Shown here in pieces: positions 3,019-47,400 of a stretch of 64,000 nucleotides of DNA. The translations under genes were made by a program, and so were the position numbers. The stretch is from Patescibacteria group bacterium (GTDB lineage Bacteria > Patescibacteriota > Minisyncoccia > Phycocordibacterales > Phycocordibacteraceae), in the NCBI GenBank assembly GCA_040390125.1, contig JAZJYZ010000001.1, forward strand, positions 70,428 to 134,427. The letters are read 5' to 3'. The stretch's first letter is position 1. Each line of letters begins with the position of its first letter. Below the pieces are notes generated by a model. It made no database searches, was not told the origin of the DNA, and was given only the letters and a program-made list of their open reading frames with translations.

Positions 3019-3254
3019 AAGATTCAAGTCGGTGCCCAGCCTCTCGGCACGATTTTCTAATCGCCTGCAGGAATCTCTCCTTACAGGAGCTGTACACCTC
3101 ATTCAGCAGAATGACTCTTGGAGCACGTGGATTTTTTCTTTCGGGAACTCAGAAAAAATGCACGCAGGATCTTCGATTCCTGCACGGATGTCTCCCAGAC
3201 ATCCTAGGGGGCACCAACAAAAATCGCCGCTCATGCGGCTGGTTTTTGTTTCTG

Positions 3255-3326
3255 TGCCCCCTGCAGGAATCGAACCTACATCGACGGCTTAGAAGTCCGC
3301 AGCTCTATCCATTGAGCTAAGGGGGC
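3255..3326 (-). tRNA. tRNA-Arg (anticodon TCT)
   Basis: The reverse complement reads GCCCCCT-TA-GCTC..GAGC-T-GCGGA-CTTCTAA-GCCGT-CGAT-GTAGG-TTCGATT-CCTGC-AGGGGGC-A. The anticodon loop is CTTCTAA. There is one 31-39 mismatch. No CCA is encoded. Confidence 0.8.
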
Positions 3327-13030: not shown

Positions 13031-13234
13031 ACTAGGCGATGCCCCATCGGATCCGCAGGGATCATTTAGTGTTTAGGGGATAGGGTCTAGAGAAAACACA
13101 TAGGACAGTGTTTTTTCGGGGTTTTGTGCTAAATTTGAACGACTGTTCGTAGGCAACTGCTCCCGTAAGCGAAGCTTTCGGGGGCTCGCTCGAAGAGTAT
13201 GAAAATGCTAGCATTTTCATGTTCCTTCTCTCTC

Positions 13235-13306
13235 GCTCCCGTCGTTCAATGGATAGGACATATCCTTGCGGAGGATACGATGTGGGTTCGATTCCTGCCG
13301 GGAGCA
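13235..13306 (+). tRNA. tRNA-Arg (anticodon GCG as read)
   Basis: GCTCCCG-TC-GTTC..GGAC-A-TATCC-TTGCGGA-GGATA-CGAT-GTGGG-TTCGATT-CCTGC-CGGGAGC-A. The anticodon loop TTGCGGA gives GCG, which is unusual because bacteria typically use ACG. No CCA is encoded. Confidence 0.75.
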
Positions 13307-13310
13307 CAGG

Positions 13311-13347
13311 TATAGAAAAAGTCGGGATTACTCCCGACTTTTTCTAT
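13311..13347. terminator. Bidirectional rho-independent terminator hairpin
   Basis: agaaaaa-GTCGGGA-ttac-TCCCGAC-tttttct, directly after the tRNA-Arg. Confidence 0.6.
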
Positions 13348-13356
13348 ACTCTAAAT

Positions 13357-13510
13357 GTGCTCCCGGCAGGAATCGAACTGCGGGCCGCAGGGAGCGATGA
13401 GCGACCGTAGGTTTCGAGTCGTAGCAACGACGAGAGGCGATTCCTGCCGCAACTCGTGACCGATTCCTGCTGAGAGGCGATTCCTGCCAAAATGCACGAC
13501 CGATTCCTAA
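13357..13510. repeat. tRNA-Arg 3'-end fragment array: one inverted 21-nt copy plus 2 x 2 tandem T-arm-like units
   Basis: 13357-13377 gtgctcccggcaggaatcgaa is the exact reverse complement of the 3' end of the tRNA at 13235-13306. 13431-13510 holds [gaggcgattcctgcc-N9-gaccgattcctg] twice. Confidence 0.7.
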
Positions 13511-13511
13511 T

Positions 13512-13550
13512 AAAAAAATAAAACCTCGCAAATGGCGAGGTTTTATTTTT
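13512..13550. terminator. Rho-independent terminator (hairpin CCTCGC-aaatg-GCGAGG between A and T runs)
   Basis: aaaaaaataaaaCCTCGCaaatgGCGAGGttttattttt. It sits downstream of the minus-strand small gene at 13569-13745. Confidence 0.55.
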
Positions 13551-13568: not shown

Positions 13569-13745
13569 CTACTCAGCGTTAGCCGCATCTATTTCTTGTC
13601 CGCAAAACTCATTGCCACAGATACCAGTCTTTCGATCCTTCAAACCTACATGGCAAATTCCACACCTTACCCCCGTTTCTCTCGAAACTGAAGTTCCACC
13701 AATGAGGCCTCTTTCAAGAGCACTCCATCTATCTGCACTAGACAT
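13569..13745 (-). CDS. Small zinc-ribbon-like protein (58 aa), not in the ORF track
   Basis: Reverse strand reads MSSADRWSALERGLIGGTSVSRETGVRCGICHVGLKDRKTGICGNEFCGQEIDAANAE. It has CxxC...CxxxxC pairs and lies between rpsT and a terminator. Confidence 0.35.
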   Translation of the reverse strand: MSSADRWSALERGLIGGTSVSRETGVRCGICHVGLKDRKTGICGNEFCGQEIDAANAE

Positions 13746-18420: not shown

Positions 18421-18562
18421 CCATACCGGGGCTCGGCTACAACTCTCGGCTCACCCATGTTCACCTCGGTCGCAGCCCCAGCTCACGGTTTTTTGAAACC
18501 AAAAAACATCGTTCCGCTTTTCGAGCCCAGGACGCATGCAAACTATTGCATGCTCGGTCGCA

Positions 18563-18596
18563 CAGCAAAAACAGCACTTTCGTGCTGTTTTTAAAA
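18563..18596 (-). terminator. Rho-independent terminator downstream of tRNA-Lys
   Basis: aaaaACAGCACtttcGTGCTGTttttt hairpin flanked by A and T runs. Confidence 0.55.
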
Positions 18597-18600
18597 GCTG

Positions 18601-18673
<73 letters not shown>

Positions 18674-32025: not shown

Positions 32026-33126
32026 CTAACGATTCATCGGCATCACAAGGTAGGTGAACCCCTTTCCTTGGCTATCGGTCATAACCATTGGTTTCCCGGC
32101 GCCCGCCACAGAAAAAGTAACACTATCCCCCGCAACGATTGAGAGTGCATCAATGATGTATTTTGCATTAAAGTTTATATCGATATCCTCGCCGGTGAGC
32201 ACTGCGGGAATATGATCAACCGTCTCCCCCACTGACGCATTAACCGCACGAACCGTAAAAGTCTTCTCTGAGGGTTTAAGAGAAATGTGGACCTGATTAA
32301 ATGAGTCAGTGAATATGGATACTTTGCGAAACGCACGTATAGCATCCTCTTTGAGACAGGTTGCGGACGCAACGTAATCTCGAGGAATAATCGCATGATA
32401 GTCAGGAAAGGCACCATCAATAGTTCTTGAAGTAATGTGCCCAAAATCAGAAATAAATGAGCACTGATTATCCCCCACACGTACTTCAACCTCAGACCCA
32501 AACTCAATCGCTCGCAGGATATCAAGAACATTCCGAGCAGGAATCAATACCGAACCAAAAGAACTTTTTGTTTTGATGGGTATTTTTACCTCAGCAAGAC
32601 GAAATGAGTCGGTAGCCACCGCAACCAATTCCCCTTTTTCTAAAGTAAGAGAAATACTTGAGAGCTCAGGCTTAACGCTCGACACTGATGCAGAAAATGA
32701 AACCGACTTTAGTGCACCAATAAACTCACGGACTGGTAATACAGTAGACGTACCCACACCCTCCTTTACATACGGCAGTGTAGGAAATTCCGATGGATCG
32801 ACTAACGTAATTGATGTAGTCCCCCTATCCCCATCAATAATAAGATTATTACCTGATGTTTTTAAAATTAATTTCTGATCAGTAAGTGCTGAAACTGTTT
32901 GCGACAAGATATGTGCAGGGACAGCAATAACCCCATCCTGACTCGTCTTTGCTTTAAGTACCACCTCAACACTCAAATCAAGATTGGTGGCACGAAGAAC
33001 AGCCCTCCCACCTTCAACTACTATCAAAACACAACCAAATACTGGAAGTGAGAGACTTTTATTACTCACCTTAGAGGCAATACCAACAGCCCTCTCTAAA
33101 TTCTCTCTTAATATCTCAATTTTCAT
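32026..33126 (-). CDS. dnaN: DNA polymerase III beta sliding clamp
   Basis: 366 aa, three-domain size, with MKIEILRENLERAVGIASKVS...LPVFGCVLI. Confidence 0.85.
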   Translation of the reverse strand: MKIEILRENLERAVGIASKVSNKSLSLPVFGCVLIVVEGGRAVLRATNLDLSVEVVLKAKTSQDGVIAVPAHILSQTVSALTDQKLILKTSGNNLIIDGDRGTTSITLVDPSEFPTLPYVKEGVGTSTVLPVREFIGALKSVSFSASVSSVKPELSSISLTLEKGELVAVATDSFRLAEVKIPIKTKSSFGSVLIPARNVLDILRAIEFGSEVEVRVGDNQCSFISDFGHITSRTIDGAFPDYHAIIPRDYVASATCLKEDAIRAFRKVSIFTDSFNQVHISLKPSEKTFTVRAVNASVGETVDHIPAVLTGEDIDINFNAKYIIDALSIVAGDSVTFSVAGAGKPMVMTDSQGKGFTYLVMPMNR

Positions 33127-33358
33127 ATGTATTTATAGTTAAGAGAATATCTCTATTCTAATACACTGTGGACTGTGTGGGTAGCTTAAAAAACCTTTAA
33201 TTAAGCTGTATTTATTAATTATTTTTATGAAAAGCTGTTTATTAGCCACGTTTCTACTGTGCGTAATGTCTCTAAGTATATTTTGTGATTTTTTAGAAAA
33301 AACTCTCCACATGTTTTCCACTAACTTTTTCAAGTAGTTATTCATGTTATTTTCAACA
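33127..33358. promoter_or_regulatory. AT-rich dnaA-dnaN intergenic region; candidate oriC/DUE segment
   Basis: 232 bp, very AT-rich, with DnaA-box-like 9-mers (ctgtggact, ttttccact, tctccacat). The ORF at 33139-33345 here is judged spurious. Confidence 0.4.
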
Positions 33359-34705
33359 TCATTTCAACATCCCACGAATTTCCTCTATTTGGGTTTTTAA
33401 ATCACCATCAGTAATGATTCCTCCACGAACTTTTTCACATGCATGAATAACAGTTGTGTGATCTCGCCCACCAAAAACAGTCCCTATAGCTGGATACGAT
33501 AGATGAAAATCTTCCCGGAGTATGTACATCATTATTTGACGAGGACGAACCACCTCTCTGCGTCTTGTTTTTGCATACATACTCGCCTCATCGATGTTAT
33601 AGAATTCAGCAATTCTTGAAATAACATGCTTTACAGACACAATACGTTTAGGTCTGGCGGTATTTTTTATAAGATCTTTTATTTGATCTTCTCCTAGTAT
33701 TCCCTTGAGTTGTATTTGGCAAAGAATAGTATTTAACATACCCTCTATTTCACGGATGTTTCCTGGCACCGCCATAGAAAGGCTCTCTATAGCCGTATCT
33801 GAGAGGTTGAGGTTCATTGATTCAGCTTTCGTTTTAATGATTGCCATTCTGGACTCATGGTCAGGTTCATTTATGGCGACAGCCATCCCCGCTACAAAAC
33901 GAGACTTGAGACGTTCCGTTATGTCAGGGATGAGGTTTGGGTGTTTATCGCTTGAGCAAACGATTTGCTTGTTCGCATCGTGGAGTGTATTGAAAAGGTG
34001 GAAAAATTCTTCTTGGATCGTCCCCTTTTTCGAAAAGAACTGTATGTCGTCGATTATAAGAACGTCATACGAGCGATATTTCTCTTTAAATGAAGGGATA
34101 CTGCGGTTATTGATGGCGTTCATGAACTCAAACCCAAATCTCTCAGCAGTAAGATAGAACACTTTCTTTGATGGGTAGGCTTTTTTTATCTGATTACCCA
34201 CCGCTTGAGTGAGATGCGTTTTCCCGCGTCCTGTTTCTCCGTATACGAAGAGTGGGTTGTAGGCAATACCGGGATTTTTAACAACCACTTGACCTGCAGT
34301 GAAGGCGAGCTCATTAAAAGGCCCCACGACGAAGGTATCGAAGGTGTAGCGTGGATTAAGATTGTCTGAGCGGTTGATGTAGTAGTCGGACAAAGGAAGC
34401 TCTGATTCGGTTCGAGTTTCTACGATGACCTTTTCTGGTGCTCTTTTAGGGCTTTCTTTTGAAACGATATATTCGACGCCACGAAGTGTGTCAACAAAGC
34501 CACGGATGGTCTTTAAAACGAGTTTTCCGAAGCGTTCAGATATCCATTCTTTCGTCAGTTGGTTGGGAACCCCGACAAACACAACCCCGTCTTCTATCCG
34601 TACAATGTGAGTTTCGCCGAACCACATCTTGAAACTCGCAGGAGATATTGAAAGCTCTATGTTCGTAAGCGTATTTTCCCAGAGTTGTTTTGTGTCAAGT
34701 TCCAT
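33359..34705 (-). CDS. dnaA: Chromosomal replication initiator DnaA
   Basis: 448 aa. Walker A GETGRGKTHL, IIDDIQF, and a C-terminal DNA-binding helix (...VFGGRDHTTVIHA). Confidence 0.9.
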   Translation of the reverse strand: MELDTKQLWENTLTNIELSISPASFKMWFGETHIVRIEDGVVFVGVPNQLTKEWISERFGKLVLKTIRGFVDTLRGVEYIVSKESPKRAPEKVIVETRTESELPLSDYYINRSDNLNPRYTFDTFVVGPFNELAFTAGQVVVKNPGIAYNPLFVYGETGRGKTHLTQAVGNQIKKAYPSKKVFYLTAERFGFEFMNAINNRSIPSFKEKYRSYDVLIIDDIQFFSKKGTIQEEFFHLFNTLHDANKQIVCSSDKHPNLIPDITERLKSRFVAGMAVAINEPDHESRMAIIKTKAESMNLNLSDTAIESLSMAVPGNIREIEGMLNTILCQIQLKGILGEDQIKDLIKNTARPKRIVSVKHVISRIAEFYNIDEASMYAKTRRREVVRPRQIMMYILREDFHLSYPAIGTVFGGRDHTTVIHACEKVRGGIITDGDLKTQIEEIRGMLK

Positions 34706-37898: not shown

Positions 37899-38597
37899 TT
37901 ATTTAGGGAGGGCACAGCACTGGTACCCTTCCGCAAGAGCCGGGCAACACTGGTTGTTTATTCTGGAGTAACCGACATCCATGAGTCGTTCACACGAGGC
38001 CCCGGTGGGCACAGCTCGAGGATTCTTAAATTGCGTACACGCCACCGTTACTTCCGCAGCTTGGGACACTGTTGGAACGGTACAGATAATAACAGACTCA
38101 TTTTTTGTAGCAGTTCCACCTTGCTTTTTGCAGTCTGCTTCGCTCGTTGCAGGAATTGTCGTTCGAGCGTCACTTTCAAAACTGCCCAGCATCGTTAAAT
38201 CTTTGGTAAGTGCATCCAGGTTAAGAATATTGGGGTTAATCACGTGCAAAATTACATATGCCAAGAGAAGCAGGATAAGACCCATCGCCGCACCCTGCAG
38301 GCCCTCCATCGCAGCCTGCTTTTTACCGACGACATCTGATGCCATGTATTTGAATCCGTCGAACGTAATCATGATGACCCCAAGGATTGCCGCAATGGCA
38401 ATCGTGAGCCCAAACACCGCATTCAGGTAGCTGGTGAGCGAGGTGCTGGAATCAACGGCACCACTTCCAGTTGGGAGTGGCACTGAGACGATTGGTTGAA
38501 ACTGAAATTGCGGAGCTTTGTCTGCCGCTAGTGCAGGAGTTATTCCTCCGAGGAGTGAAGCGAAGAGAAATGCGAGGGTTATGAGTATGCGGGACAT
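37899..38597 (-). CDS. VirB2/TrbC-like pilin candidate with a Cys-rich C-terminal extension
   Basis: Signal peptide (...ITPALAADKA), then two hydrophobic helices separated by a short loop (LTIAIAAILGVIMITF / AAMGLILLLLAYVILHVI), then a tail with 8 Cys. I chose the internal Met start, which gives a 4-nt-type overlap with the upstream gene. Confidence 0.4.
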   Translation of the reverse strand: MSRILITLAFLFASLLGGITPALAADKAPQFQFQPIVSVPLPTGSGAVDSSTSLTSYLNAVFGLTIAIAAILGVIMITFDGFKYMASDVVGKKQAAMEGLQGAAMGLILLLLAYVILHVINPNILNLDALTKDLTMLGSFESDARTTIPATSEADCKKQGGTATKNESVIICTVPTVSQAAEVTVACTQFKNPRAVPTGASCERLMDVGYSRINNQCCPALAEGYQCCALPK

Positions 38598-38598
38598 A

Positions 38599-39567
38599 TT
38601 AAAATGTAAGTTGGAATGATGTGTTTGCATGTTCTAAGAATTTTTTTATGTTTTCAAAAGATACACGCACCGTGTGTGCGCCACTTCCAGTTCCAACTTT
38701 TCTAAATGTTGCACTCTGTGGCTTTGTTGGATCGACAGTAAAGGGCACCGTGTCGAGAGTCCATGTGTATGATACGTCACCGGTGTTCTCTATGGAAAGA
38801 GGGTACGCAACAAATGATACTTCGTCTCCAGTTAGTGGAAACAATGCTGTGTGTGCCTTATCAAATCGCACGCCAAGTAGTGGCGCATCCTCGTATATAA
38901 CCAGAGATGGCGTTTGAGGCTGCACCGTGAGCGACTGCTCGCCAGCAATGGAGCCGTCTTGCGTGCTCACCACAACGGAGACAGTGAATGCGCCTCCGAA
39001 GCTGGGGGCTGTGACCACCGCACTCCATTTACCGTACCCAGATTGCTTTTGCAAAGGTACGTTATTTACTTTCCATGAATATACCAATGCGTTTGAAGGG
39101 GCCTCAGCTCCGTTTATTACCAAATGCGGTATAGCCATGAGTGTAACGGAACTGTGACCATTGGGGAGTGGGCGTCCGATGTAAAGAGCTGGCGTGTATG
39201 TGTTCCCTTCCCAGAGGATATCGACTGACGCTGGTCGAATAATGGTTATGCCGTCCGCTCGAGCGGAGTTGTTTTCGACCGCAATAACACGAATGGTTTC
39301 CGTCGTGCCCAAGCCATCGAGAATAATGGCAATTGAGGTGTGGTCAATTCCTTGGTCAACAACCTCACCGTTCAGACTCCATACGTATGCGGTGGTACCT
39401 ACTTCCCTGCCTGGATCAGAGACCGTCAATGTAACCTGGCTTCCTGGTCGTGGGTGTGCAGGGTTCACCCCTATTTCGAGCTCGGAGCTGAACGTTGGCA
39501 GAATTTCCGCCGAAGCGAAGACTGGAGCCAGGAATAGTAAAGAAAGCGCAAATGTCGCCCGAAGCAT
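38599..39567 (-). CDS. Secreted beta-rich protein, hypothetical (T4SS-like cluster)
   Basis: 322 aa with an N-terminal signal peptide (MLRATFALSLLFLAPVFASA). Confidence 0.45.
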   Translation of the reverse strand: MLRATFALSLLFLAPVFASAEILPTFSSELEIGVNPAHPRPGSQVTLTVSDPGREVGTTAYVWSLNGEVVDQGIDHTSIAIILDGLGTTETIRVIAVENNSARADGITIIRPASVDILWEGNTYTPALYIGRPLPNGHSSVTLMAIPHLVINGAEAPSNALVYSWKVNNVPLQKQSGYGKWSAVVTAPSFGGAFTVSVVVSTQDGSIAGEQSLTVQPQTPSLVIYEDAPLLGVRFDKAHTALFPLTGDEVSFVAYPLSIENTGDVSYTWTLDTVPFTVDPTKPQSATFRKVGTGSGAHTVRVSFENIKKFLEHANTSFQLTF

Positions 39568-39574
39568 CTGTTCA

Positions 39575-39738
39575 TTATAAGGGATGGGGAAGCTTTCAGC
39601 TTTCAGCTTTCAGCTTTCAGGGGGGAAATCAGCAGGGAGGCTTCTAGCGGACAGGCGATGTTTCATCGGATCCGTAGGGATCATTTAGCGTCTAGCTTTA
39701 ACTGCAGAAGCTAGTCGCTAAACGCTAGCCGCTATCCC
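39575..39738. repeat. Oligo-repeat spacer ((agctttcag)x3, agctagtcgctaaacgctagc) plus a 32-nt motif shared with 13045-13076
   Basis: Seen directly in the sequence. Confidence 0.55.
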
Positions 39739-41550
39739 CTAGCTGTTTCCCTCTCTTTTCTCCCGTGCTATCGAAAGCAACTGGGATGGGTCTGAGGTAA
39801 TTATCTGGTCTTCTGTGTAGGAGGCGATGATTTTTATGGCTACGTGCTTAAGACCTGCGAAGAAAATACCTTCACCGACGTCAGATTCTAGAAGCAGGTA
39901 TTTCTCCTCCTCGGTTAAGTTGAAGGTTTTTTGCACGGCCTCTATGGATGTGGGTGACTGCTTGAGAAGAATCTGAATAGAAGAGTTGGTGAGCATCGGC
40001 AAACCGTAGGGAGACTTCAAGAAGTCTTCTACGTCTTGAGTAATAGTGGCGAGCCCCAGATAGTATTTTCTTCCACGTTTCGCCATACCATAGAGGAATG
40101 CAGCAGTGTCTTCAGATTTCATCATCCACCACGCCTCGTCAATGACGAGCAGACGTTTACGCAGGTCCTTCCTGACCGCATTCCAAATAAAGTGCGTAAT
40201 GATATACATCGCAATCGTTTTTAGCTCGTCTTCCATGTTTCGAACTGAAAACGCCACGAACTTTTTGTTGATGTCTACGTTTGTTGGTCGGTTAATGAAG
40301 CCAGACCACGTACCTTTTGTGTATTTTGTAACTCTCTGCACCAAGGACTCGCTTCCTTCCATGCCTGCAAGCACAAGTTCGAAGTCAGACAAAAGCGGCG
40401 GCTCCATGTTGGTGAAGTCGTTGGCACCAGTGATGTCTTTAAGTGCGTACGTTTCTGTAATGGCCCGATCAATAATTGCATCTTCTTCAGGGGTAAGACC
40501 GCCAAGCATCAACCGAAACAATCCCACTAAGTTGATTATGTTTGATCGCAAGATGTCAGCCGGCGATTCATCTTCACGTGGCACCGGCAAATCGAAAGGG
40601 TTGATGCGGTTTTCTGAAGACAGTGAAATATTGAAAAATCTTCCACCAACGGCGTTTGCCAGGTACTCGTATTCGCTTTCAGGGTCTATGACGATGACTT
40701 CAGTGTCGAACATGAGCGACCGCAATATTTCAAGCTTCGTACCATATGACTTTCCGGAGCCAGATTTCGCAAAGGTGACGGAGTTATAGTTTTCCAAGGA
40801 AAATCTGTCGAACAAGATTAACGATGAGTTGTGTCTGTTAATGCCGTACAGAATTCCCTTGTCGCTTGTGAGGTCGAATGAAATGAATGGGAAGAAGCTT
40901 GAAAGCGGAGCAGAGTTCATTTTTGAGTTAACGGCGAGCTGGTCATCCCCTATCGGTATGACGCTTCGAAATCCCTGCTCTTGCTGGAAGAGAGCTGGTT
41001 TTATGTATACGAGTTTTGCGTCAAGAATCGAACGCATTTCGGCCTCTGTTTTGTCGAGCTCATCTTGGTTCGTGCCATAAATCGATATATAAAGACCAAC
41101 ATCAAATATGCGTTCTTGTGCCTGCTGGAGTTGATCACGGAGTTGTTCAATGTCTTGGGAGGCCGTGTCGAGTATTGGGTCACGCACCATCCCCTTCTCT
41201 TGGCGTGTCATTCTTTGGCTTTGAACCTCGGCAACCTTTTTCTGTAGTTTTCGAAGGACTGCCGCAGTGTCGATTGGATGGATGAATATAGAAATATCCA
41301 AAACCCTGTCACGGTTAATGATTGGTGCAAACCATGTGCCAGACAAAAAGCGAGGATATGAAATCACGTAAAAGGTACGCACCAGCTTGTCGCCCAAGTT
41401 CATCTCACGAGGAGTAATTTTGAGAGCTGACGGTGCAATAATGTCAGCAAAGTCTAACTTCGCCGCTTCGTAAATGTCTTTTGGCAAAAACGGCGTCAGT
41501 GCGTCTTTCTTTTTTGTTCCTTTCCCAGTGAATGCGTCGAAAATTCCCAT
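39739..41550 (-). CDS. Type IV secretion/conjugation ATPase, VirB4/TraC/TrbE class (C-terminal ATPase portion)
   Basis: 603 aa with Walker A FAKSGSGKSYG, DPESEY and Walker B LLVIDEAWWMM. The overall pattern matches VirB4-family ATPases. Confidence 0.7.
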   Translation of the reverse strand: MGIFDAFTGKGTKKKDALTPFLPKDIYEAAKLDFADIIAPSALKITPREMNLGDKLVRTFYVISYPRFLSGTWFAPIINRDRVLDISIFIHPIDTAAVLRKLQKKVAEVQSQRMTRQEKGMVRDPILDTASQDIEQLRDQLQQAQERIFDVGLYISIYGTNQDELDKTEAEMRSILDAKLVYIKPALFQQEQGFRSVIPIGDDQLAVNSKMNSAPLSSFFPFISFDLTSDKGILYGINRHNSSLILFDRFSLENYNSVTFAKSGSGKSYGTKLEILRSLMFDTEVIVIDPESEYEYLANAVGGRFFNISLSSENRINPFDLPVPREDESPADILRSNIINLVGLFRLMLGGLTPEEDAIIDRAITETYALKDITGANDFTNMEPPLLSDFELVLAGMEGSESLVQRVTKYTKGTWSGFINRPTNVDINKKFVAFSVRNMEDELKTIAMYIITHFIWNAVRKDLRKRLLVIDEAWWMMKSEDTAAFLYGMAKRGRKYYLGLATITQDVEDFLKSPYGLPMLTNSSIQILLKQSPTSIEAVQKTFNLTEEEKYLLLESDVGEGIFFAGLKHVAIKIIASYTEDQIITSDPSQLLSIAREKREGNS

Positions 41551-41552
41551 AT

Positions 41553-42227
41553 TTATTGAGTTTCAGCTGGCTGTTCCATAACAATTGGTTTTTCTAATTC
41601 GCCCGGATTAAATTCCTTATACAAAAGTTCAATCACCTCTTCAGTGCCAAGGGGTACTGTTCGCACTCCCGTGCGGGCAAGTCCTTGCTCCACCGTTCCC
41701 ATTCTTTGCTCAAGTTGAGTGCGGTGCTCTTCAAATCCTATGGCCCCTTTATCTTGCCTCGCAGAAAGATCAGTTTTCCCGAAAATTTTGTTTTGCACAG
41801 TCTTTTTAATATCAAGCATTGGAGGAGCATACGGAATCACTATAAAGAAGTGCTTGCTCATGATGTTGGCACGTTCAGTGAATGTTTTTATGAATTCTAT
41901 ATATTCACGCACCTGTATTTTCATGAGCTCCTCTGTTTGTGCTTTGAGACGCTCTTCAAGGAGTGCGATATAAGGACGGATGTCCAGTTTTCGAGATTGA
42001 ATGAAAAACTGTACGCTGAAATCGAGCGAATTCATGAAGCTCTGAAATTGCGAGAGTATCGCATTCTGCTCGTCTTCGGATTTAAGTGCGAAGTTCACGG
42101 ATGACGCTAGCATCACCCCCACGAGCGTTCCGCTTTTCATTACCATCACGCCCCCACGCACTTCTTTCACCGGAACGAAGTCCTGTGCCGCTTTTGTTTT
42201 TGCTGTTTTTTCGTCTCCGCCTGCCAT
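41553..42227 (-). CDS. Protein encoded immediately upstream of VirB4 with a 4-nt overlap; possibly a separately encoded VirB4 N-terminal domain
   Basis: 224 aa. 224 + 603 is about the size of a full VirB4 (around 800 aa). ATGA overlap. Confidence 0.4.
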   Translation of the reverse strand: MAGGDEKTAKTKAAQDFVPVKEVRGGVMVMKSGTLVGVMLASSVNFALKSEDEQNAILSQFQSFMNSLDFSVQFFIQSRKLDIRPYIALLEERLKAQTEELMKIQVREYIEFIKTFTERANIMSKHFFIVIPYAPPMLDIKKTVQNKIFGKTDLSARQDKGAIGFEEHRTQLEQRMGTVEQGLARTGVRTVPLGTEEVIELLYKEFNPGELEKPIVMEQPAETQ

Positions 42228-42249
42228 AGTATTTGAAAGGTTCTAGCTT

Positions 42250-42630
42250 CTAGGTGCTAGCTTTAAGGCTAGCAATCACAGCGACAAGCATTCTTGAAAC
42301 TTCTTCGAGCATTGCCGTCGATTCATTATAGTCGATTTTTTCTCCGTATTCTAAGCGTTTAGCCATTTCCAACTGTGTTTCTAGCTCTGAAGTAGATCCT
42401 AATGCGATGTGTAAAAATTGTGCAAAATCTTTTCTGGTACCACGTGATCTACCTTCGGCTATATTGGAAGGAATAGAAACAGCACTTCTTCTCATTTGAG
42501 AAATAAGTCCAAATTTTTCTTCCGATGGAAACTTTGAAGTAAATTTGTAAATAACCATTGCTAAATCTACCCCCTTTTGCCAAACAATCAGGTCTTTATG
42601 AGAACGTATTTGAGTTTTAGTTTTTTGCAT
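42250..42630 (-). CDS. Four-helix-bundle protein ('23S rRNA intervening-sequence protein' family), paralog 1
   Basis: 126 aa with LIVWQKGVDLAMVIYKFTSKFPSEEKFGLISQMRRSAVSIPSNIAEGRSR...FLHIALGSTSELETQL, the family signature. Confidence 0.7.
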   Translation of the reverse strand: MQKTKTQIRSHKDLIVWQKGVDLAMVIYKFTSKFPSEEKFGLISQMRRSAVSIPSNIAEGRSRGTRKDFAQFLHIALGSTSELETQLEMAKRLEYGEKIDYNESTAMLEEVSRMLVAVIASLKAST

Positions 42631-42674
42631 TTGAAAGCTAGCACCTAGAACCTAGTCCCTAGCACCCCCCCCCT

Positions 42675-43112
42675 CTACTGTTGTTTCTTGTCACTATATA
42701 CACTCTCCTTTATATCCAAACTCCACGCCAGATCTTTTATCTTGTTCGAGGTTGCTGAGGGCACATATTTTGAAGGATCTTCAGCACGTATTTCTCCTGG
42801 CAGTATGATTTCGTCAGGCAGTACCGTTTTTGATTGCTTCTTTTCCCAAATGTAGAGTTTAGTGCGAAATAGGTATTGAAAACCTGCCTCAAGAGCATTG
42901 ATGAGTGGTCGGTCATTTATTTTATAGAATGCGAGTCCAGCACCTAGTGCCGCTACGGGTCCGCCTATAAGGATGGCAAGCCAATGGGGAGCAATGAGCC
43001 ACATGGCAAACAAGAACCCACCTCCTCCAATGAGATAGATGAATTGCACTGCGGTTAAGGGACCGAAGATTTTATCTTCAACTTCTACGAATTGTGGTAC
43101 TTGGAATTGCAT
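42675..43112 (-). CDS. Small membrane protein, VirB3/PrgI-like candidate
   Basis: 145 aa with 2 TM helices near the N-terminus. Its size and position upstream of VirB4 fit. Confidence 0.35.
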   Translation of the reverse strand: MQFQVPQFVEVEDKIFGPLTAVQFIYLIGGGGFLFAMWLIAPHWLAILIGGPVAALGAGLAFYKINDRPLINALEAGFQYLFRTKLYIWEKKQSKTVLPDEIILPGEIRAEDPSKYVPSATSNKIKDLAWSLDIKESVYSDKKQQ

Positions 43113-43171
43113 GGAAGTGAATAGAACAGTGAACAGAGTACAGTGTACAGTGAACAGAGAGAAAAATGGAG

Positions 43172-43564
43172 TTACGTATGTGCTTTTGTTTTCAATACTG
43201 CGATAAGTTTTGAAAGCATGAGTTTAAGTTCAAGGGTTTGTTGGCGTAAATTGACACATTCTTTATTTGAGGAAAATTTGAGTTTTTCGGCTATAACAAT
43301 TTGAGTATCTAACTCCGCAAGTGAACCAAGTGCAATGTGCAAAAACTGTATAAAGTCTTTAGTGGTATTACGTGATTTCCCTTCAGCAATATTTGATGGA
43401 ATAGAAACCGCTGACCTCCGCATCTGAGAGATAAGTCCAAATTTTTCATCGGACGGATATTTTGATGTCGCAATATATATTTTTTCTACAAGGTTGATTG
43501 ATTTCTGCCACACCAATAAATTCTCATGCGAAGCTACACGGCCACCGTTATCAGAGTCACTCAT
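43172..43564 (-). CDS. Four-helix-bundle protein ('23S rRNA intervening-sequence protein' family), paralog 2
   Basis: 130 aa with LLVWQKSINLVEKIYIATSKYPSDEKFGLISQMRRSAVSIPSNIAEGKSR...FLHIALGSLAELDTQI, over 60% identical to paralog 1. Confidence 0.7.
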   Translation of the reverse strand: MSDSDNGGRVASHENLLVWQKSINLVEKIYIATSKYPSDEKFGLISQMRRSAVSIPSNIAEGKSRNTTKDFIQFLHIALGSLAELDTQIVIAEKLKFSSNKECVNLRQQTLELKLMLSKLIAVLKTKAHT

Positions 43565-43629
43565 ATTTTCTAGCTTCTTAATTCAGCGTCTTAAAGCTGT
43601 ACACTGTTCACTAAACACTATCCCCTACC

Positions 43630-44436
43630 TCATTCCACTGGTTCTCTATACGGGTCCACTCCTCCTTTATATATTGGTTTTGCTGATGTTGGCGACGGTG
43701 GGGGCGTTGGTGCTTTTTCTGCGACCGGTGTTTCTTTTGCAGGCTGAACGCTCTCCGCAGGAGCTGGTTCAGATTTAGGGGTTGTTTCTAGCCCGAGTTT
43801 TTGTAGGGCGATGTTTGGCTGTATTGGAGAGATACGAGGTGCGCTCGAGTCAGTCTCTCTTGGTTTCAGTTCTATTGAGTTGTCATGCTCTGGTACTGGA
43901 GTTTTTTCAGCTTCAAGGAGTGCTTCTGCAAGCTCCTTGTCCGCCTCCTCTTGCAATTTTTGAGCCTCCTCTTGCTCGGCTTTTTCTAGTGCCAACAGTT
44001 CCGGGTCATCGTCTGCCAGGTACTCTATTCTTTCTCTACGTGCATTTTCGGCTATTTCTTCTGCGGTAAGTTCTCGTTCGGGTTCGGAGACTCCCTCCGC
44101 AACTTTCTTAGGTTCGAGGATACCCTCTTTGAGGCGTCTTTTTGCTTCCTTAAATAGGCGGTCATTCATGTCAGCAACGAGTTCATGCGTTATTGCGTTC
44201 GACAGCTCCGGCATCCATTGGTGCAGATTTGTTTCAAGGGCCGACTCTGCTTCCAATCCCATCAACGTGACGTTGCCAATTTCGCTTATTATCATAAGCT
44301 CCCGTAAATCCAGGTTGAACTTTTTTTGTATCCCAATATAGATATTTGTTAAGGCTTCTGTACCTAGGAAATCAGAAACCGACTCAGGTAGTTTTTTTCT
44401 CGCTTCATCTTTTTCTTCGTTGGTGTGGGGTTTCAT
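43630..44436 (-). CDS. Acidic coiled-coil protein with a Pro/Thr-rich C-terminus, hypothetical
   Basis: 268 aa. E/K-rich heptad-like region, then PAPAESVQPAKETPVAEKAPTPPPSPTSAKP. Confidence 0.45.
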   Translation of the reverse strand: MKPHTNEEKDEARKKLPESVSDFLGTEALTNIYIGIQKKFNLDLRELMIISEIGNVTLMGLEAESALETNLHQWMPELSNAITHELVADMNDRLFKEAKRRLKEGILEPKKVAEGVSEPERELTAEEIAENARRERIEYLADDDPELLALEKAEQEEAQKLQEEADKELAEALLEAEKTPVPEHDNSIELKPRETDSSAPRISPIQPNIALQKLGLETTPKSEPAPAESVQPAKETPVAEKAPTPPPSPTSAKPIYKGGVDPYREPVE

Positions 44437-44439
44437 AGG

Positions 44440-47400
44440 TTATGTGGTTGGTGGTGGCAGTAGTGTATTGAATTCATCTGAATCTACAAATTGTTGCACA
44501 TCTCTACTCAATGCAACATCAGGTCGCCTACGGAATTCTTGCAGTGTTCTTCTAATATACTGCAGTCCTGTAGTATCACCTCTGCTTTGTGCCTTGCTTA
44601 TGATTGCACGAAGTGCTGACGCCCTTGGTGCTGCAGCTACTGCGTTTGGAATAAATTCATACGGCACCTGAGCCCACTGTTCATCCGTGCGACCCTCCAT
44701 GAATTTGCGGGTACTCTCCAATACTTGCGGGGTAAAGCGTGCTGCGGGGTCGATATTTCTAAAATGATCTTCCCATGTCGTTGGTGTTACTAAGTTACCC
44801 GCAGTAGGAGTGTCTGTGGAGGTGTTTACTAAACTACTTGCTACAGGTTCAGTCCCTGTGTATGTTTGTCCAACTAAACGAGGTGCATCAATGTCACTTT
44901 GGCCTCCTGGCATTCGTGCTTGTGAGCCCGACAGTGACATATTTGCGGATGGTTCCTCGGCATCCTCTGGCTCGCTATCGGCTTCATCAGGTCCTGATAC
45001 GTTTACATCACTATTATTTGGGATGATTTGTGGTTCGTAGATTGGCTCGCTTCTGGTTATTGTTGGGGGTTCTATTGTCTGCCCACCCCCGTCCGGACTA
45101 CTACCTCCCGGGTTATTCCCGTTATCGCCCCCATCATTTCCGTCGTCTGGATCATCATCTTCGTCGTCCCCATCATCACGGTTATCATTCATAGAAGCTT
45201 GTCCAGGTACAAATTCAGTCGTGAATGGGTCAGAAGGTAGATTATTTTTCCCATACCAGTTTCTACGGATTTTGTTGATTTCTGCCAATCGCTCTTCGTT
45301 TGGCCAACCGAATTGTTTTTTGATGTCGGGGTTTGTTAGGGCATTTGCAATGAAGGTGTCGTCGCCGTGCATAAGCATATTTTCCCATACTGCCGTTTTC
45401 TCGGCTTTATCCTGTCCTGAAAAGAGTGCTGTCAATCTGTCCGCATCTTTTACACCGAATACGGTCGAGATAGTGTGCGCCTCTCTTTTACCTAAGAGAC
45501 CCATTTCGAAGTCATTTTTCCCATCATGCCATCCTGGGATACCCGTTGGATCGTTGGGGTCATACCCACCTTCAATCATTTTCATCCTGTCGAAAATGAT
45601 ATTCAAAGGATCTGAACCAACCACTCCTCTAATTGCCTCTGCTTTTTCCTGTGGCGTTTTCTTTCCTACAAGGGCCGCGGCAATTTTTTTGTCATACTCT
45701 TTTCTTGCGTCACGAATTGCTCGCATCCTTTGAGCTTCGTTTTTGATACTGCTGAGTTCTGTTTTTTTGCCGTCCGGTGATGTTAGTGTTAAATTTTTAT
45801 TTAATGTAGCTTCAGCAAAATCTCGATCTCGCTTTGCTATCTTATAAGTGCTTACAGTGACCCCAGACAATTCACCGTCACCGTAGGCCCTCTCGGCACC
45901 CTCATAGAGATCGATTGTCTTTTGTCTATCTGCCATGAGACTTGTTCGACGTTTATAACCTCTCTCGACACCGTCATATTCTACGGTGCCGCCTACCTCT
46001 GGGACCATATTCTTGTTTTTTCCAAGTCCAAGTGCTAGCAAGGCCAAGCTGTATTCGTCACGCATGTCGGTCATCGGTGAGCGTTTCATACTGCCTGCTT
46101 TTCGTTGTTCAGTGGAAGAAAGAAGTTTGTCCCGTTTGATTTCAATTGCTGCGGTACTGCTGGTGCCAAGCCATAACTCCGGCATGGCACGCAGTTGTGC
46201 ACCGGTCAGTGCATCGTGTCCAGTACCAATGTGGTCAGCTTTGATGAGTGCCTTCAGCTCGTCATTTGGGAGGTATTTTGACTGATAGTTGTACGGAACC
46301 AATATGCGCCTACCATACTCCTCGCTACCGCGGATAAGCTTGCCATCCTCTACATCTTTATTTATATCCTTAATCATGCCTACAAACTCACCTGTGCGGA
46401 GTCCCCACATTGCATCTTTGATGTCATGTCTTATGGAATGATCATCTTGGAGTGCTTTAAATTGCGGGGTTGAAAGTAGCGTTGAATACTGAAGAAGTGA
46501 TTTAGGGTCCTTGCGGTATTCACGTTTCAAGAATTCCGGAGAAAACACGTCAACAATACTTTGGGCTTCGCCTCGCAATTCACGTGATTTGAAATGGTTA
46601 TCCAAACGTTCGTAGTAGCCCCAGTCCCCGTTGCTTTCATCGGCTGCGGCACCGTTAACGCCTTTTTTCTTTTTGCCGACCCCTTGTTTGATGCGAAGTG
46701 TAATTTCGTCGTCGTTTTCCAATCTATCGAGACCGGTATCTTTGTCTTTCACCATTATTTTTGCTTTATCAAGACCACCTCGAGCTCGCAATTCTTGCAG
46801 GTTTTCCCACCGCATCTTGCCATTTTTGTCTTTCACTTTCTGAAGGCCAGTACGTGCCAACACCTCCTCGTCGGTCTCCATTTCCCCGTTCTCTTTCCTT
46901 ATTTTGTGATCACGCAGTGCTTGCCTATTCCAAAATTCGTCTTGTGTCTCCACTCTGTCTTTAGAGAGTTTTTGTCCGGTCGTTGGGTCTATCTCCCCTT
47001 TCTTAAGTGTTTTTGGTTTGAAGCCGTCATTGAATTCTCTCTGGAAGTTTCTTTGTGCTTTTTCTAGAGCTGGACGTTTATCTGCGAGTTCTTTTTTTCT
47101 CTCCTCGTCCTTTTTAATTTCGTCTATGGCGATTTCACGAGCTTCTCTTTCTTTTTTTACAGTTTCATAACCTTTGAATCCTTCGTGTTTTTTGCCGTCT
47201 GCGTCGGTGTAGGCGCCGAACTTTTTGTCTGCAAGTTTATCCAAAACCTGAGCTTTTATAACTCGATCAGCACCTGTTCTCATAAGAAATTTTCCAAGGC
47301 GTGTCTCTTTTGCTATGTATTCGTCAAATTTATATGTAGCTCTTTCAGCCACTCTCCCCACAGTATTTCGTGCTGCAACAGCTCCAATCCAACTGGTAAG

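Follow-up and report, generated by a model that had tools for sequence, protein, structure and literature searches.

What left a series of tRNA fragments behind the tRNA-Arg(GCG) gene of this Patescibacteria contig, and do they mark a place where DNA was inserted? By the window we mean the whole stretch of 64,000 nucleotides that was analysed. The gene lies at 13235-13307 on the forward strand (ARAGORN call; Rfam RF00005, 56.5 bits) and has no encoded CCA, C74 alone being present 3' of the discriminator. An intact tRNA followed by a terminator had been predicted from the letters, and both are there, but the gene ends at 13307 and not at 13306. Downstream of it, a perfect palindrome on both strands (13310-13349, 18-nt arms, 4-nt loop) has an inner stem GTCGGGA/TCCCGAC, then TTTTTCT on either strand; read by eye, it is a putative bidirectional intrinsic terminator, which travels with the element described below. 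The same hairpin, with its TCTAAAT spacer, was also found in three related loci (L002, L003 and L202). The inverted copy of the tRNA 3' end is present and exact as well, but it spans 22 nt at 13357-13378 of the forward strand (the reverse complement of 13286-13307), rather than 21 nt at 13357-13377, and consists of an anti-acceptor and an anti-T-arm segment. As for the tandem T-arm fragments, the two units and four cores hold, with a period of 40 according to Tandem Repeats Finder instead of about 38. Two features had been omitted, an inverted copy of the tRNA 5' end (13426-13436) and a second terminator-like hairpin (13514-13550).

The same layout is found at tRNA-Arg(TCT) and tRNA-Lys, so that three of the five window tRNAs carry it, and also in related loci; the locus is therefore not a one-off scar. 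Our survey set consisted of 279 tRNAs, from the window and 80 related loci of Paceibacteria (candidate phyla radiation). Within 200 nt downstream, 51 of these tRNAs have an inverted match to their own 3' end that is 10 nt or longer; upstream, 2 have one. For 31 tRNAs a direct repeat comes after this inverted copy, 9-20 nt long and flush with the end of the tRNA, and 94 of the 279 carry one or more signs of an element, be it the inverted copy, the direct repeat, a match to the class B model or the class A motif. The inverted orientation, held to be atypical in the original prediction, is instead a regularly positioned part of a module that recurs after many different tRNAs, among them Lys, Ser, His, Val and Leu.

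A complete copy directly follows the last encoded base of the tRNA; counted from there through the direct repeat, it measures about 130-250 nt. Shorter, reduced forms exist too, the family as a whole ranging from about 100 to 250 nt. Its parts come in the order bidirectional terminator hairpin, anti-acceptor, usually an insert, anti-T-arm, core and direct repeat, and a second terminator is often placed 3' of the repeat. The anti-T part is antisense to the 3' strand of the T-stem and to part of the T-loop. Located exactly between the two antisense segments, the insert is usually 19-26 nt long and mostly a hairpin; it was found in 22 of 27 bipartite copies, the antisense being continuous in 4. 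Cores of about 60-190 nt, with a conserved secondary structure, belong to class A, B or C. The direct repeat reproduces the last 9-20 nt of the tRNA, most often 15-20, and ends exactly where the tRNA ends. Reduced class B copies do without the tRNA-like closing helix and use TTTTGT/ACAAAA or GCTTGTC/GACAAGC, and a few copies do not adjoin any tRNA, so that tRNA mimicry is not universal in the family.

The two other window copies are both on the minus strand. Homology and covariation place a class A element at 3064-3253, after tRNA-Arg(TCT) (3254-3326): a terminator is followed by the anti-acceptor GGTGCCCCCT, a 22-nt insert holding a hairpin (AGGATGTCTGGGAGACATCCGT), the anti-T-arm (3172-3187), the core, and the direct repeat GATTCCTGCAGG at 3064-3075. 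After tRNA-Lys (18600-18673) comes a class B element at 18432-18599 (class B model 71.2 bits, E 2.3e-17), with a terminator, a degenerate anti-acceptor TGTGCGACCGA, an inserted hairpin, the anti-T-arm (18520-18531), the core (18432-18524) and a degenerate repeat.

Set against this anatomy, the array behind tRNA-Arg(GCG) can be read piece by piece. Its antisense segment is unbroken, no hairpin being inserted, a continuity which is a class C trait. The class C core that follows (13379-13437, forward strand) contains a hairpin at 13418-13431 (GTCGT-AGCA-ACGAC) and ends in a conserved CGAGAGG. Homologous cores follow tRNA-Arg(GCG) in five genomes (L202, L002, L003, L066 and L048), and the hairpin has undergone compensatory changes, to GTTGT/ACAAC in L202 and GCAT/ATGC in L002. 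With the class B model this region gives a weak match only (13.6 bits, E 0.78). The inverted copy of the tRNA 5' end, AACGACGAGAG, complementary at 10 of 11 nt, overlaps the hairpin and the core end. Next comes a truncated direct repeat of the tRNA 3' end, CGATTCCTGCCG (13438-13449, forward strand; tRNA positions 56-67), at the place where L048 has the full-length repeat CGTTCCTGCCGGGGGCAC. It is followed at 13450-13476, on the same strand, by the right end of an older class B-type copy, CAACTCGTGAC, and then a degenerate repeat CGATTCCTGCTGAGAG; this assignment is based on the boundary motif AACTCGTGAC plus CGATTCC, common to the window, L033, L004 and L003. In L003 the same junction is present, and a class A remnant comes after it.

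The junction between the two remnants has undergone a local tandem duplication of 2 x 40 bp at 13432-13508 of the forward strand (Tandem Repeats Finder: period 40, 1.9 copies, 83% matches), which is missing from L003, L002 and L202. The four direct T-arm cores CGATTCCT(GCC) start at 13438, 13461, 13478 and 13501. With at most one mismatch, CGATTCCTGCC occurs 8 times in the window for 1.0 expected, a count reached by 0 of 100 shuffles, and two of the extra matches are those of the tRNA-Arg(TCT) locus. At the far end, inverted-repeat analysis detects a bidirectional terminator-like hairpin on both strands (13514-13550), which is common to the tRNA side and to the convergent 58-aa ORF / rpsT. Empty-site relatives have one terminator only between the tRNA and rpsT, and the distal hairpin is probably the original tRNA terminator. 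On inspection, both 13310-13349 and 13514-13550 are G+C-rich hairpins with a T run on both strands. Neither is listed by a consensus terminator scan, in our reading because the flanking A and T tracts pair and the stem outgrows the T run. The best explanation for 13357-13511 is that the newest copy is of class C, has lost the acceptor half of its repeat, and abuts the right end of the older class B-type copy, the junction having later been duplicated. The locus is an old composite copy, and no active site.

Comparison with relatives for an empty or occupied site, as had been proposed, revealed both states. Orthologous tRNA-Arg(GCG) sites are empty in L006, L008, L015, L016, L019 and L035, and the occupied ones differ from genome to genome, with a class A, B or C element. 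Copies stack in tandem (L081, L042 and L203), in line with the repeated events that had been suggested; two tandem copies are identical in L042. Replication-driven duplication from the same locus was considered and rejected, as the identical proximal and distal terminators that it predicts were found only in this L042 tandem, and loosely in L009. These empty and filled orthologous sites, together with the direct repeats, tie inserted DNA to the tRNA 3' end, and to this extent the idea of an integration scar stands.

A near-identical element was shown to sit on two different tRNAs, its acceptor-matching segments being refitted to each host. The elements of tRNA-Arg(TCT) in the window and tRNA-Arg(GCG) in L009 have a common terminator, inserted hairpin and core; the alignment, which takes in the tRNA bodies, has 84.5% identity as a whole, with a visibly closer match in the element part. 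The anti-acceptor is GGTGCCCCCT in the former and TGTGCTCTCG in the latter, and the repeats differ too, each fitting the local tRNA. Among orthologous class C copies, one anti-acceptor base distinguishes the window from L002 and L003. It is the partner of tRNA position 68, and the antisense segment follows that position (GCTCCCG in the window, GCTCTCG in L002 and L003). An element that brought its own tRNA 3' end to a different tRNA should leave a mismatched acceptor stem, a point against the entry model set out below. The repeats differ widely in length, reduced forms having 3-7 nt and the longest 20 nt, which argues against one fixed recombinase crossover point. Five copies were found in L014 (about 20 kb were sampled per genome); they have diverged with compensatory differences, identity between the His and Leu cores being 65-70% by a rough estimate by eye. 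As copies within one genome are diverged, there is no sign of recent bursts, and this divergence is as compatible with old functional RNAs kept by vertical descent as with mobile DNA.

Class A and B cores show strong base-pair covariation. A hand-picked seed alignment and a covariance model were used for class B, replacing an unreliable regular-expression extraction. Of 12 predicted class B pairs, 11 had compensatory changes, and 95.4% of cells were paired, versus 73% in shuffles and 27-38% in slid controls; the observed values were matched in 0 of 500 shuffles on any of five measures. Compensatory changes were found in 9 of 10 predicted pairs of class A. No consensus structure was derivable for class C from its six copies, one of which has a large insertion. 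The predicted class B pairs included 11 G-U versus 2 A-C. A similar count on antisense/tRNA mismatches was dropped, since the 8-10-mers with up to 2 mismatches were mostly random (51 versus 46).

Strand preference was examined as well. Class B model matches lie within 600 nt downstream of a same-strand tRNA in 72 of 79 cases, 65 of them within 150 nt. In 28 of 31 cores, folding is more stable for the tRNA-sense strand than for its complement (Wilcoxon p = 1.3e-7). The three window copies, located on one side of dnaA, lie in both orientations, each following its tRNA.

Two observations concern how such structures are read. Hairpin covariation and G-T wobbles are equally expected of a single-stranded DNA structure, and the position of the core 3' of an apparently efficient terminator counts against assuming transcription.

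Taken with slightly better than even confidence, our preferred reading is that a family of small non-coding elements resides at tRNA 3' flanks in Paceibacteria, and that the locus is a stack of partly decayed members. New copies would gain entry at the 3' end of the tRNA through recombination within the segment running from the T-loop to that end. The entering element would supply a replacement 3' end and a terminator, the old 3' end being displaced downstream as the direct repeat, and older copies would be shifted outward by new ones and then decay. The functional form is probably a read-through RNA, initiated at the tRNA promoter and of the same strand as the tRNA. In such an RNA, the 5' antisense segment could pair with the 3' direct repeat and close the core, with a helix having the sequence of the stacked acceptor and T stems of the host tRNA. 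The match between antisense and tRNA might be kept by selection for this closing helix, or by templated correction within the long palindrome.

A first alternative is that the structured cores, along with the segments copying or complementing the tRNA ends, are owned by the host, as vertically inherited trailer (and leader) RNAs within tRNA transcription units rather than mobile DNA, with a role in precursor processing, folding control or decay, for instance through alternative pairings of the acceptor strand or as an RNase III or RNase P/Z-type processing site. The deep conservation with compensatory changes speaks in its favour, and so does the divergence, by eye, of copies within a genome, which are not near-identical. 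The antisense moreover tracks the tRNA even where the acceptor half of the partner repeat is lost (window, L002 and L003), and in a read-through RNA the 3' half of the tRNA would become part of a 40-bp hairpin (z = -9.8). A further argument comes from the tRNA-Arg(GCG) leader. Read from the sequence, a 5' hairpin GCTCCCG-TAAGCGAAGCTTT-CGGGGGC (13159-13185, forward strand), about 50 nt upstream of the tRNA, reproduces the acceptor-stem sequence in its stem. It is also found upstream of tRNA-Arg(GCG) in L004, L009, L202, L002, L003, L027, L040 and L053, and its stem tracks the local acceptor sequence across relatives (CCC, CTT or CTC). However, orthologous tRNAs of many genomes have no element or another core class, copies stack and decay, one element sits on different tRNAs in different genomes, cargo genes are found between modules, and the core is located past a terminator. 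We consider a host-owned trailer unlikely.

According to a second alternative, which appears quite unlikely, the elements are DNA-level repeats like REP/BIME or integron attC, the role of the hairpins being played in single-stranded or cruciform DNA. The inverted copy would then result from quasi-palindrome extension or correction, in which a template switch at the terminator palindrome copies the constrained tRNA arm; such copying easily explains an automatic match to the neighbouring tRNA. Indeed, the tRNA end, terminator and inverted copy make up one long palindrome, unbroken in our reading across the tRNA-trailer boundary of tRNA-Lys. The inverted copy is also strictly Watson-Crick to the 3' strand and does not reproduce the G-U-containing 5' strand of the tRNA, and a position 3' of terminators is typical of REP-like repeats. 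Against it, the terminator palindrome, read by eye at empty sites (L008, L015, L016 and L019), stops short of the tRNA, which means that its extension comes with the core. An asymmetric spacer (AG versus TCTAAAT) has remained uncorrected in four genomes while the antisense follows the tRNA, and the hairpin regularly found inside the inverted copy is not predicted by simple fold-back copying. Orientation is set by the tRNA and not by the direction of replication. Finally, the conserved loops TGGGA, TGTAA and TAAT and a tandem G-A internal loop resemble motifs familiar from RNA structure.

The elements do share traits with known DNA repeats. Like MITEs and REP/BIME, they are small, non-coding, present in several copies, located 3' of terminators and endowed with mutually inverted ends. 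Unlike MITEs, however, they have as ends the 3' end of the local tRNA, so that two copies of one element can differ there; in the roughly 20 kb sampled per genome, the L014 copies are diverged and two tandem ones of L042 identical. No GTAG-type REP head turned up when the element copies were read, and the window ORFs searched include no Y1 transposase. With integron attC sites and the folded single-stranded site of the CTX phage, they have in common imperfect palindromes whose structure is kept above sequence, a folded stem that would recreate a duplex target, and array-like stacks with the newest member nearest to a fixed entry point. They differ in that the 'cassettes' would be structured non-coding cores of about 100 nt, and the target a tRNA gene end; no integron integrase was found in the window, and no R/L box consensus is obvious by eye. 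The T-loop GTTCGAA of the element misfits, by eye, the attC crossover GTTRRRY, and orientation and loop conservation point to RNA.

A third alternative, which comes closest to the scar originally proposed, is that a tyrosine-integrase island or prophage once used the 3' end of the tRNA as its integration site and has since been deleted. This would account for the direct repeats of that end, for sites being either empty or filled and for the tandem stacks, and real islands do use tRNA-Lys in this group, as seen in L058, where a 5.7-kb island contains a split serine recombinase and a diversity-generating retroelement. Like elements that target tRNAs through a tyrosine integrase, those described here use the tRNA 3'-end site, have a direct repeat running from the T-loop or T-stem to the end, leave the element-proximal tRNA intact, form tandem stacks and show both site states. 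A bounding direct repeat is found family-wide, although at the window tRNA-Arg(GCG) the repeats are truncated or degenerate. Yet the elements are only about 100-250 nt long, encode no integrase or other protein, add an inverted target copy and a covarying core, and have repeats of 3-20 nt; neither an integrase gene nor kilobase-scale cargo was found between the repeats. A Pfam search of 40 window ORFs revealed no integrase, transposase or reverse transcriptase. A search at every locus for distant copies of the last 16 nt of the tRNA detected no large bounded island, the few copies found being paralogous tRNAs or the inserts of L042 and L066. These inserts, bounded by the same repeats, are cargo-bearing versions; elements contain no ORF except for two cargo cases, a GIY-YIG gene (in L042) and a small membrane protein. 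Elements were seen in neither a free nor an excised form. The narrow size range and the conserved, covarying cores are moreover unlike the remnants of random deletions. The footprint of a conventional, integrase-borne island is thus absent, and a classical island scar, very unlikely in our eyes, is largely refuted.

Phage attachment sites as the origin of the elements were rejected as well: a scan of viral contigs with CCGGAG..CGAGNNGGGGTCG gave 120 loci, which is about chance by our estimate, and the class B model yielded 2 weak matches only on 100 of them, so that the class B motif is at chance level in viral contigs.

The least credible alternative, a decayed convergent tRNA-Arg gene sharing its terminator with the intact one, has for it the real convergent pairs of this kind in L015, L029, L039 and L052 and the inverted copies of both tRNA ends (22 nt for the 3' end, 10 of 11 nt for the 5' end), but is refuted by family-level comparison, since the interval between the fragments is not tRNA-like (no ARAGORN or Rfam call), the interior beyond the 22-nt copy is a conserved non-tRNA core homologous to those of five other genomes, the 11-nt match is made of the covarying hairpin plus the conserved CGAGAGG, which does not track the tRNA, and the layout is the same behind the Lys, Ser, His, Val and Leu tRNAs. 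A split or intron-containing tRNA on the minus strand was discarded for the lack of an ARAGORN or Rfam call and the same non-tRNA-like interior.

Returning to the element family, conservation of the array as a structure in relatives, which the original prediction had set against an insertion, was found, and inserted DNA is supported as well. Both descriptions apply, and the locus is best described as an inserted element that is also a conserved structured unit. Among the known systems that the family resembles are tRNA-like modules (the tRNA-like domain of tmRNA, the bacterial Y-RNA-like YrlA, viral 3' tRNA-like structures and mascRNA), in view of a predicted closing helix with the sequence and length of stacked acceptor and T stems and a side hairpin where the D and anticodon arms would emerge. 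The lengths expected of an acceptor/T minihelix, 7 bp stacked on 5 bp, and the position of the junction fit in 22 of 27 complete copies, discriminator and C74 being paired. Unlike in these modules, the core takes the place of a T-loop, the discriminator is base-paired, the mimic copies a particular neighbouring tRNA instead of a generic shape, and reduced copies have no mimic.

Like the primer-binding sites of retroviruses and LTR retrotransposons, the antisense segment is an 18-22-nt complement of one particular tRNA's 3' end and can change to suit a new tRNA. It is usually split by a hairpin, contrary to these sites, and no reverse transcriptase was found in the window. A primer-binding role was rejected, as in genes without an encoded CCA the complement runs into the genomic trailer and not into CCA (CACA in Arg(GCG), GCACAGC in Lys). 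An encoded CCA is not enriched at tRNAs bearing an element (11 of 94, versus 37 of 185 without).

A bolder proposal, possible though rather unlikely, is that the elements are protein-less, self-targeting RNA elements living on tRNA genes and programmable for tRNA gene ends. The 5' antisense would read the 3' end of the host tRNA, as an insertion guide or as a partner sensing or sequestering the tRNA. The 3' end of the element would impersonate a tRNA and be cut out by tRNA-processing enzymes, perhaps with CCA added, and retargeting to a new tRNA would amount to rewriting guide and repeat. A programmable system targeting tRNA ends, if real, would be of a kind not described so far.

The family itself is apparently undescribed. 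At gathering thresholds, Rfam 15 matched tRNA alone in the window and seven related loci; at permissive thresholds, applied to the locus and to complete class A and B copies, it returned sub-threshold hairpin noise and nothing credible. A literature search found no description of such tRNA-tail elements. If the elements are what they appear to be, about one third of the sampled tRNA genes of these ultra-small, host-dependent bacteria carry passenger RNAs that copy and complement the end of their host tRNA and can be refitted between tRNAs. The lineage, in which very few non-coding RNAs are known, would gain a minimum of two new classes of structured RNA (A and B), and the elements would offer a concrete system for the rewriting of target specificity without an element-encoded protein. 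Their presence would also bear on termination and processing of tRNA precursors in these bacteria, and call for caution when islands are called from tRNA-flanking repeats in metagenome-assembled genomes.

Two further points concern the tRNA-Arg(GCG) gene itself. The palindrome noticed in its leader is present, but inverted-repeat analysis makes it a perfect 22-mer at 13199-13220 of the forward strand (ATGAAAATGCT|AGCATTTTCAT), not one of 20 bp. It is retained in L202, L002 and L004 with both arms changed symmetrically, and other hairpins occupy its position in L003 and L009. Lastly, the anticodon GCG had been thought unusual for bacteria. Among the 279 tRNAs, 64 tRNA-Arg(GCG) genes were counted versus 0 tRNA-Arg(ACG), so that GCG is the rule in this lineage and no local oddity.

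The tRNA-Arg(GCG) locus proved to be a composite, decayed member of a family of small non-coding elements at tRNA 3′ ends, a family that is recurrent, oriented, covarying and insertion-polymorphic. The original prediction had described a tRNA followed by an inverted copy of its 3′ end and by tandem T-arm fragments, and this was borne out with small corrections only. The gene is real (13235-13307, plus strand; ARAGORN, and Rfam at 56.5 bits) and ends at 13307 rather than 13306; CCA is not encoded, apart from a single C 3′ of the discriminator. Directly downstream is a perfect palindrome with 18-nt arms (13310-13349), which looks like a bidirectional terminator because its inner G+C stem sits between an A run and a T run. 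This hairpin was not among the sites listed by a terminator consensus scan, which we attribute to the A and T tracts making the stem longer. Then come the exact reverse complement of the last 22 nt of the tRNA (13357-13378, one nucleotide beyond the 21 nt first seen) and a tandem repeat (13432-13508, 83% matches) holding, as predicted, two units and four direct CGATTCCT(GCC) cores, with a unit of 40 bp instead of about 38. The region ends with another terminator-like hairpin (13514-13550), common to rpsT and a convergent, Cys-rich 58-aa ORF (CGIC...CGNEFC; 13569-13745, minus strand) lying between rpsT and the element. This ORF has no Pfam match and is a called gene in the Logan contig L001. 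The surroundings are rpsT, ruvA, a Mur ligase and a SpoU methylase, at 45% G+C, a setting that pointed to a bacterium of the candidate phyla radiation. L001 (SRR26324623, 5389 nt), the sole public contig with the window's exact S20 protein, terminates within the Arg(GCG) element, consistent with assembly breakage at these repeats.

With at most one mismatch, the CGATTCCT motif occurs 8 times in the window, versus 1 expected, and none of the shuffles reached 8. Two of the extra matches pointed to tRNA-Arg(TCT) at 3254-3326, and a repeat scan drew attention to tRNA-Lys at 18600-18673, both on the minus strand; the original prediction had taken in the Arg(GCG) copy alone. Each is followed on its own strand by an element, of class A for Arg(TCT) (3064-3253) and of class B for Lys (18432-18599; 71 bits with R1, the class B covariance model), the three classes A, B and C being defined by their cores. 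The order is the same at both: tRNA, terminator, the tRNA's own 3′ end inverted (40-82 nt 3′ of the tRNA), then a direct T-arm fragment. This layout is absent from the tRNA-Val and tRNA-Ser of the window.

Related loci were collected by scanning species-representative genomes with the window's Mur ligase, which gave 80 syntenic loci (L-numbers below), most of them titled Paceibacteria, Parcubacteria or another Patescibacteria group. ARAGORN found 282 tRNAs in the window and fetched loci, 279 of them with enough flank for testing. For 51 of the 279 tRNAs, the 200 nt downstream contained an inverted copy (at least 10 nt of the last 26 nt), whereas upstream this held for 2; a few of the 51 were genuine convergent tRNA pairs. 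Once such pairs were removed, 31 tRNAs had both an inverted copy and a 9-20-nt direct repeat, stopping exactly at the tRNA end, while 17 had the inverted copy alone and 11 the repeat alone. By any criterion, 94 of the 279 tRNAs carried an element marker, and the hosts include tRNA-Arg (three anticodons), Lys, Ser, His, Val and Leu. The GCG anticodon, thought unusual at first, is no oddity here, tRNA-Arg(ACG) being absent from every locus.

A complete copy begins right after the last encoded tRNA base with the palindromic terminator, followed by an anti-acceptor segment (complementary to the acceptor 3′ strand, discriminator and C74 included), a single A, a 7-10-bp hairpin whose loop is 3-5 nt long, G or GT, an anti-T segment complementary to the 3′ strand of the T stem and to T-loop positions 54-60 (e.g. 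CCTGGGCTCGAA), the core, a direct repeat running from tRNA position ~56 or 60 through the end, and often a second terminator. The whole hairpin insert measures 19-26 nt (modes 22 and 25). In 22 of the 27 bipartite cases it lies exactly at the boundary between the anti-acceptor and anti-T segments; the antisense copy is unbroken in 4 cases, namely the class C copies at Arg(GCG) and the Val element of L056. In class A and class B alike, a small TAAT-loop hairpin, not always present, may split the direct repeat between CGAA and its T-stem portion. Pairing of the antisense segment with the direct repeat is possible on one strand; it would close the core with a helix that reproduces in sequence the acceptor and T stems of the host tRNA, stacked on each other. 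In that fold, the inserted hairpin would emerge at the position of the D and anticodon arms.

The class B core has the form AGCC-GGA-GC[hairpin]GC-GA-GGC-GG-GGTCGCG[hairpin]CGTGACC. In an alignment of 20 copies, 11 of the 12 pairs predicted by RNAalifold show compensatory changes and 95.4% of cells are paired, versus 73% in shuffles and 27-38% in slid controls; on no measure did any of 500 shuffles match the observed value. For class A (ACCTTGTG..hairpin..CACAAGGT-GTAC-TG-CTCC-TGTAA-GGAG-CGA), compensatory changes were found in 9 of 10 predicted pairs, GTAC and TGTAA being almost invariant. The class B model gave 79 matches at E < ~1e-3 in 1.34 Mb: 65 at most 150 nt downstream of a same-strand tRNA, 7 further out but within 600 nt, as second units of stacks, and 7 elsewhere. 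Of 31 cores, 28 fold better as the tRNA-sense strand than as its complement (p = 1.3e-7), and G-U outnumbered A-C in predicted class B pairs (11 versus 2). None of the class A, B and C cores matches an Rfam family, and a literature search found nothing comparable to these elements.

The antisense segment fits its local tRNA. The elements of the window's Arg(TCT) and of Arg(GCG) in L009 have in common the terminator, the 22-nt hairpin insert, the anti-T segment and the core, and align at 84.5% identity with the differing tRNA bodies included. Their anti-acceptors are respectively GGTGCCCCCT and TGTGCTCTCG, each fitting the local tRNA, and the acceptor part of the repeat differs likewise. Among orthologous class C copies, a single anti-acceptor base differs, GCTCCCG in the window versus GCTCTCG in L002 and L003, and is the partner of tRNA position 68, which varies in the same way. 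Something therefore keeps the antisense segment fitted to the adjacent tRNA, either selection for pairing or templated copying. Upstream of tRNA-Arg(GCG), a leader hairpin (GCTCCCG...CGGGGGC, 13159-13185) repeats the acceptor stem in its own stem; 3′ of it lies the palindrome noted in the original prediction, which is indeed perfect and measures 22 bp (13199-13220), not 20. Both are found 5′ of tRNA-Arg(GCG) in L004, L202 and L002; L003 and L009 keep the leader hairpin with a different second hairpin, and the former also occurs in L027, L040 and L053. Its stem tracks the local acceptor sequence (CCC, CTT or CTC), and both palindrome arms change symmetrically between loci. tRNA-Arg(GCG) thus has end-copying structures on either side.

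Comparison of the Arg(GCG) site adjoining rpsT revealed both occupied and empty states in relatives, as the original prediction had proposed to examine. Only one terminator follows the tRNA in L008, L015, L016, L019 and L035, and also in L006, where the neighbours differ; in the first four, judged by eye, the terminator stem stops short of the tRNA. Among occupied sites, those of L009, L025 and L058 have a class A element, those of L014, L026 and L039 one of class B, and those of the window, L002 and L003 one of class C; L004 and L033 carry a related class B-type right end. Repeated events, suggested at the outset, are evident in stacks at tRNA-Lys: class A then class B in L081, two identical units and a remnant in L042, and in L203 two new units between the tRNA and the counterpart of the window's tRNA-proximal unit. 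In all stacks the tRNA-proximal unit is the better preserved. Two larger inserts have the same repeats at their boundaries. In L066 (12596-13330), a ~700-nt version 3′ of tRNA-Lys contains a 129-aa ORF, apparently a membrane protein, with no Pfam match, flanked by a degenerate left module and by the right-end motif GGGGTCGCG-hairpin-TGTGAC plus repeat. In L042 (3672-4230), 3′ of tRNA-Ser, a class B unit precedes a second insert, devoid of antisense module. This insert encodes a 72-aa protein with a GIY-YIG nuclease domain, and its end is marked by a further perfect repeat (19 nt) of the tRNA end.

The Arg(GCG) element itself, which the class B model matches weakly (13.6 bits), starts with a class C unit (13357-13437), a continuous antisense copy and a core ending CGAGAGG, with homologues in L202, L002, L003, L066 and L048. 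Its hairpin at 13418-13431 has compensatory variants (GTCGT/ACGAC, GTTGT/ACAAC, GCAT/ATGC). The direct repeat is shortened to CGATTCCTGCCG (13438-13449), the full-length form being retained in L048. Joined to it are CAACTCGTGAC and CGATTCCTGCTGAGAG (13450-13476), a class B-type right-end motif with a degenerate repeat, of the kind seen in L033 and L004. This junction recurs in L003, where a class A remnant comes next; the pile-up is therefore older than the split of these lineages, and the 40-bp unit across the junction was duplicated later, in the window's lineage only.

An element of this kind may enter by recombination over the segment from T-loop to 3′ end, and would then supply a replacement tRNA 3′ end and terminator. 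Its putative function would lie in a sense RNA made by read-through, whose closing helix may imitate the host tRNA's acceptor/T stack. Difficulties for such a mechanism are the variable repeat length, and that an element with its own tRNA end must reach a different tRNA without damage. A trailer RNA owned by the host is a reasonable alternative, as is a palindromic repeat acting at the DNA level, its matching maintained by template switching. The classical island scar first proposed is unsupported: among 40 ORFs across the window, Pfam detected no integrase, transposase or reverse transcriptase, and found housekeeping genes, dnaA/dnaN and a type IV secretion-like cluster. A deleted convergent tRNA copy likewise found no support.

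Real islands likewise use tRNA-Lys, as a 5.7-kb island adjoins it in L058 (14300-20130), with a SocA/Panacea antitoxin, a serine recombinase split over two ORFs, and a diversity-generating retroelement (reverse transcriptase, bAvd and a likely variable protein). A class B core lies 3′ of the island's last terminator, closed by GCTTGTC/GACAAGC and not by tRNA sequence. Reduced class B copies 3′ of tRNA-Lys have an anti-acceptor down to GTGCG, or GTCCG where the tRNA ends ..GCGGAC, and are closed by TTTTGT/ACAAAA. What the family has in common is therefore a structured core just 3′ of a terminator, closed by pairing of the terminator 3′ flank with a downstream repeat, with the tRNA-matching helix as its most elaborate version.

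The replication origin is probably near 35 kb of the window, since dnaN and dnaA are at 32026-34705. The AT skew reverses around 36-40 kb, and the cumulative GC skew drops throughout, with no clear turning point. All three elements of the window are found on the same side of dnaA and include both orientations, each one following its own tRNA, which argues against a mechanism specific to single-stranded DNA of one replication strand. The secretion-like cluster (37899-50504) includes a type IV secretion pilin-like protein, a TraG/VirD4-type ATPase and a 1406-aa ORF; several of its ORFs have no Pfam match.

In all loci, nearly all tRNA genes lacking an encoded CCA have a C directly 3′ of the discriminator, which looks like a lineage-wide encoding of partial CCA (C74 only). 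Finally, ARAGORN reported one tRNA with anticodon UUA ('tRNA-Stop') in each of L059 (near 10115) and L072, the former with a class B core downstream, the latter with an acceptor sequence similar to tRNA-Lys; a suppressor, a recoded codon or an erroneous call could explain them.
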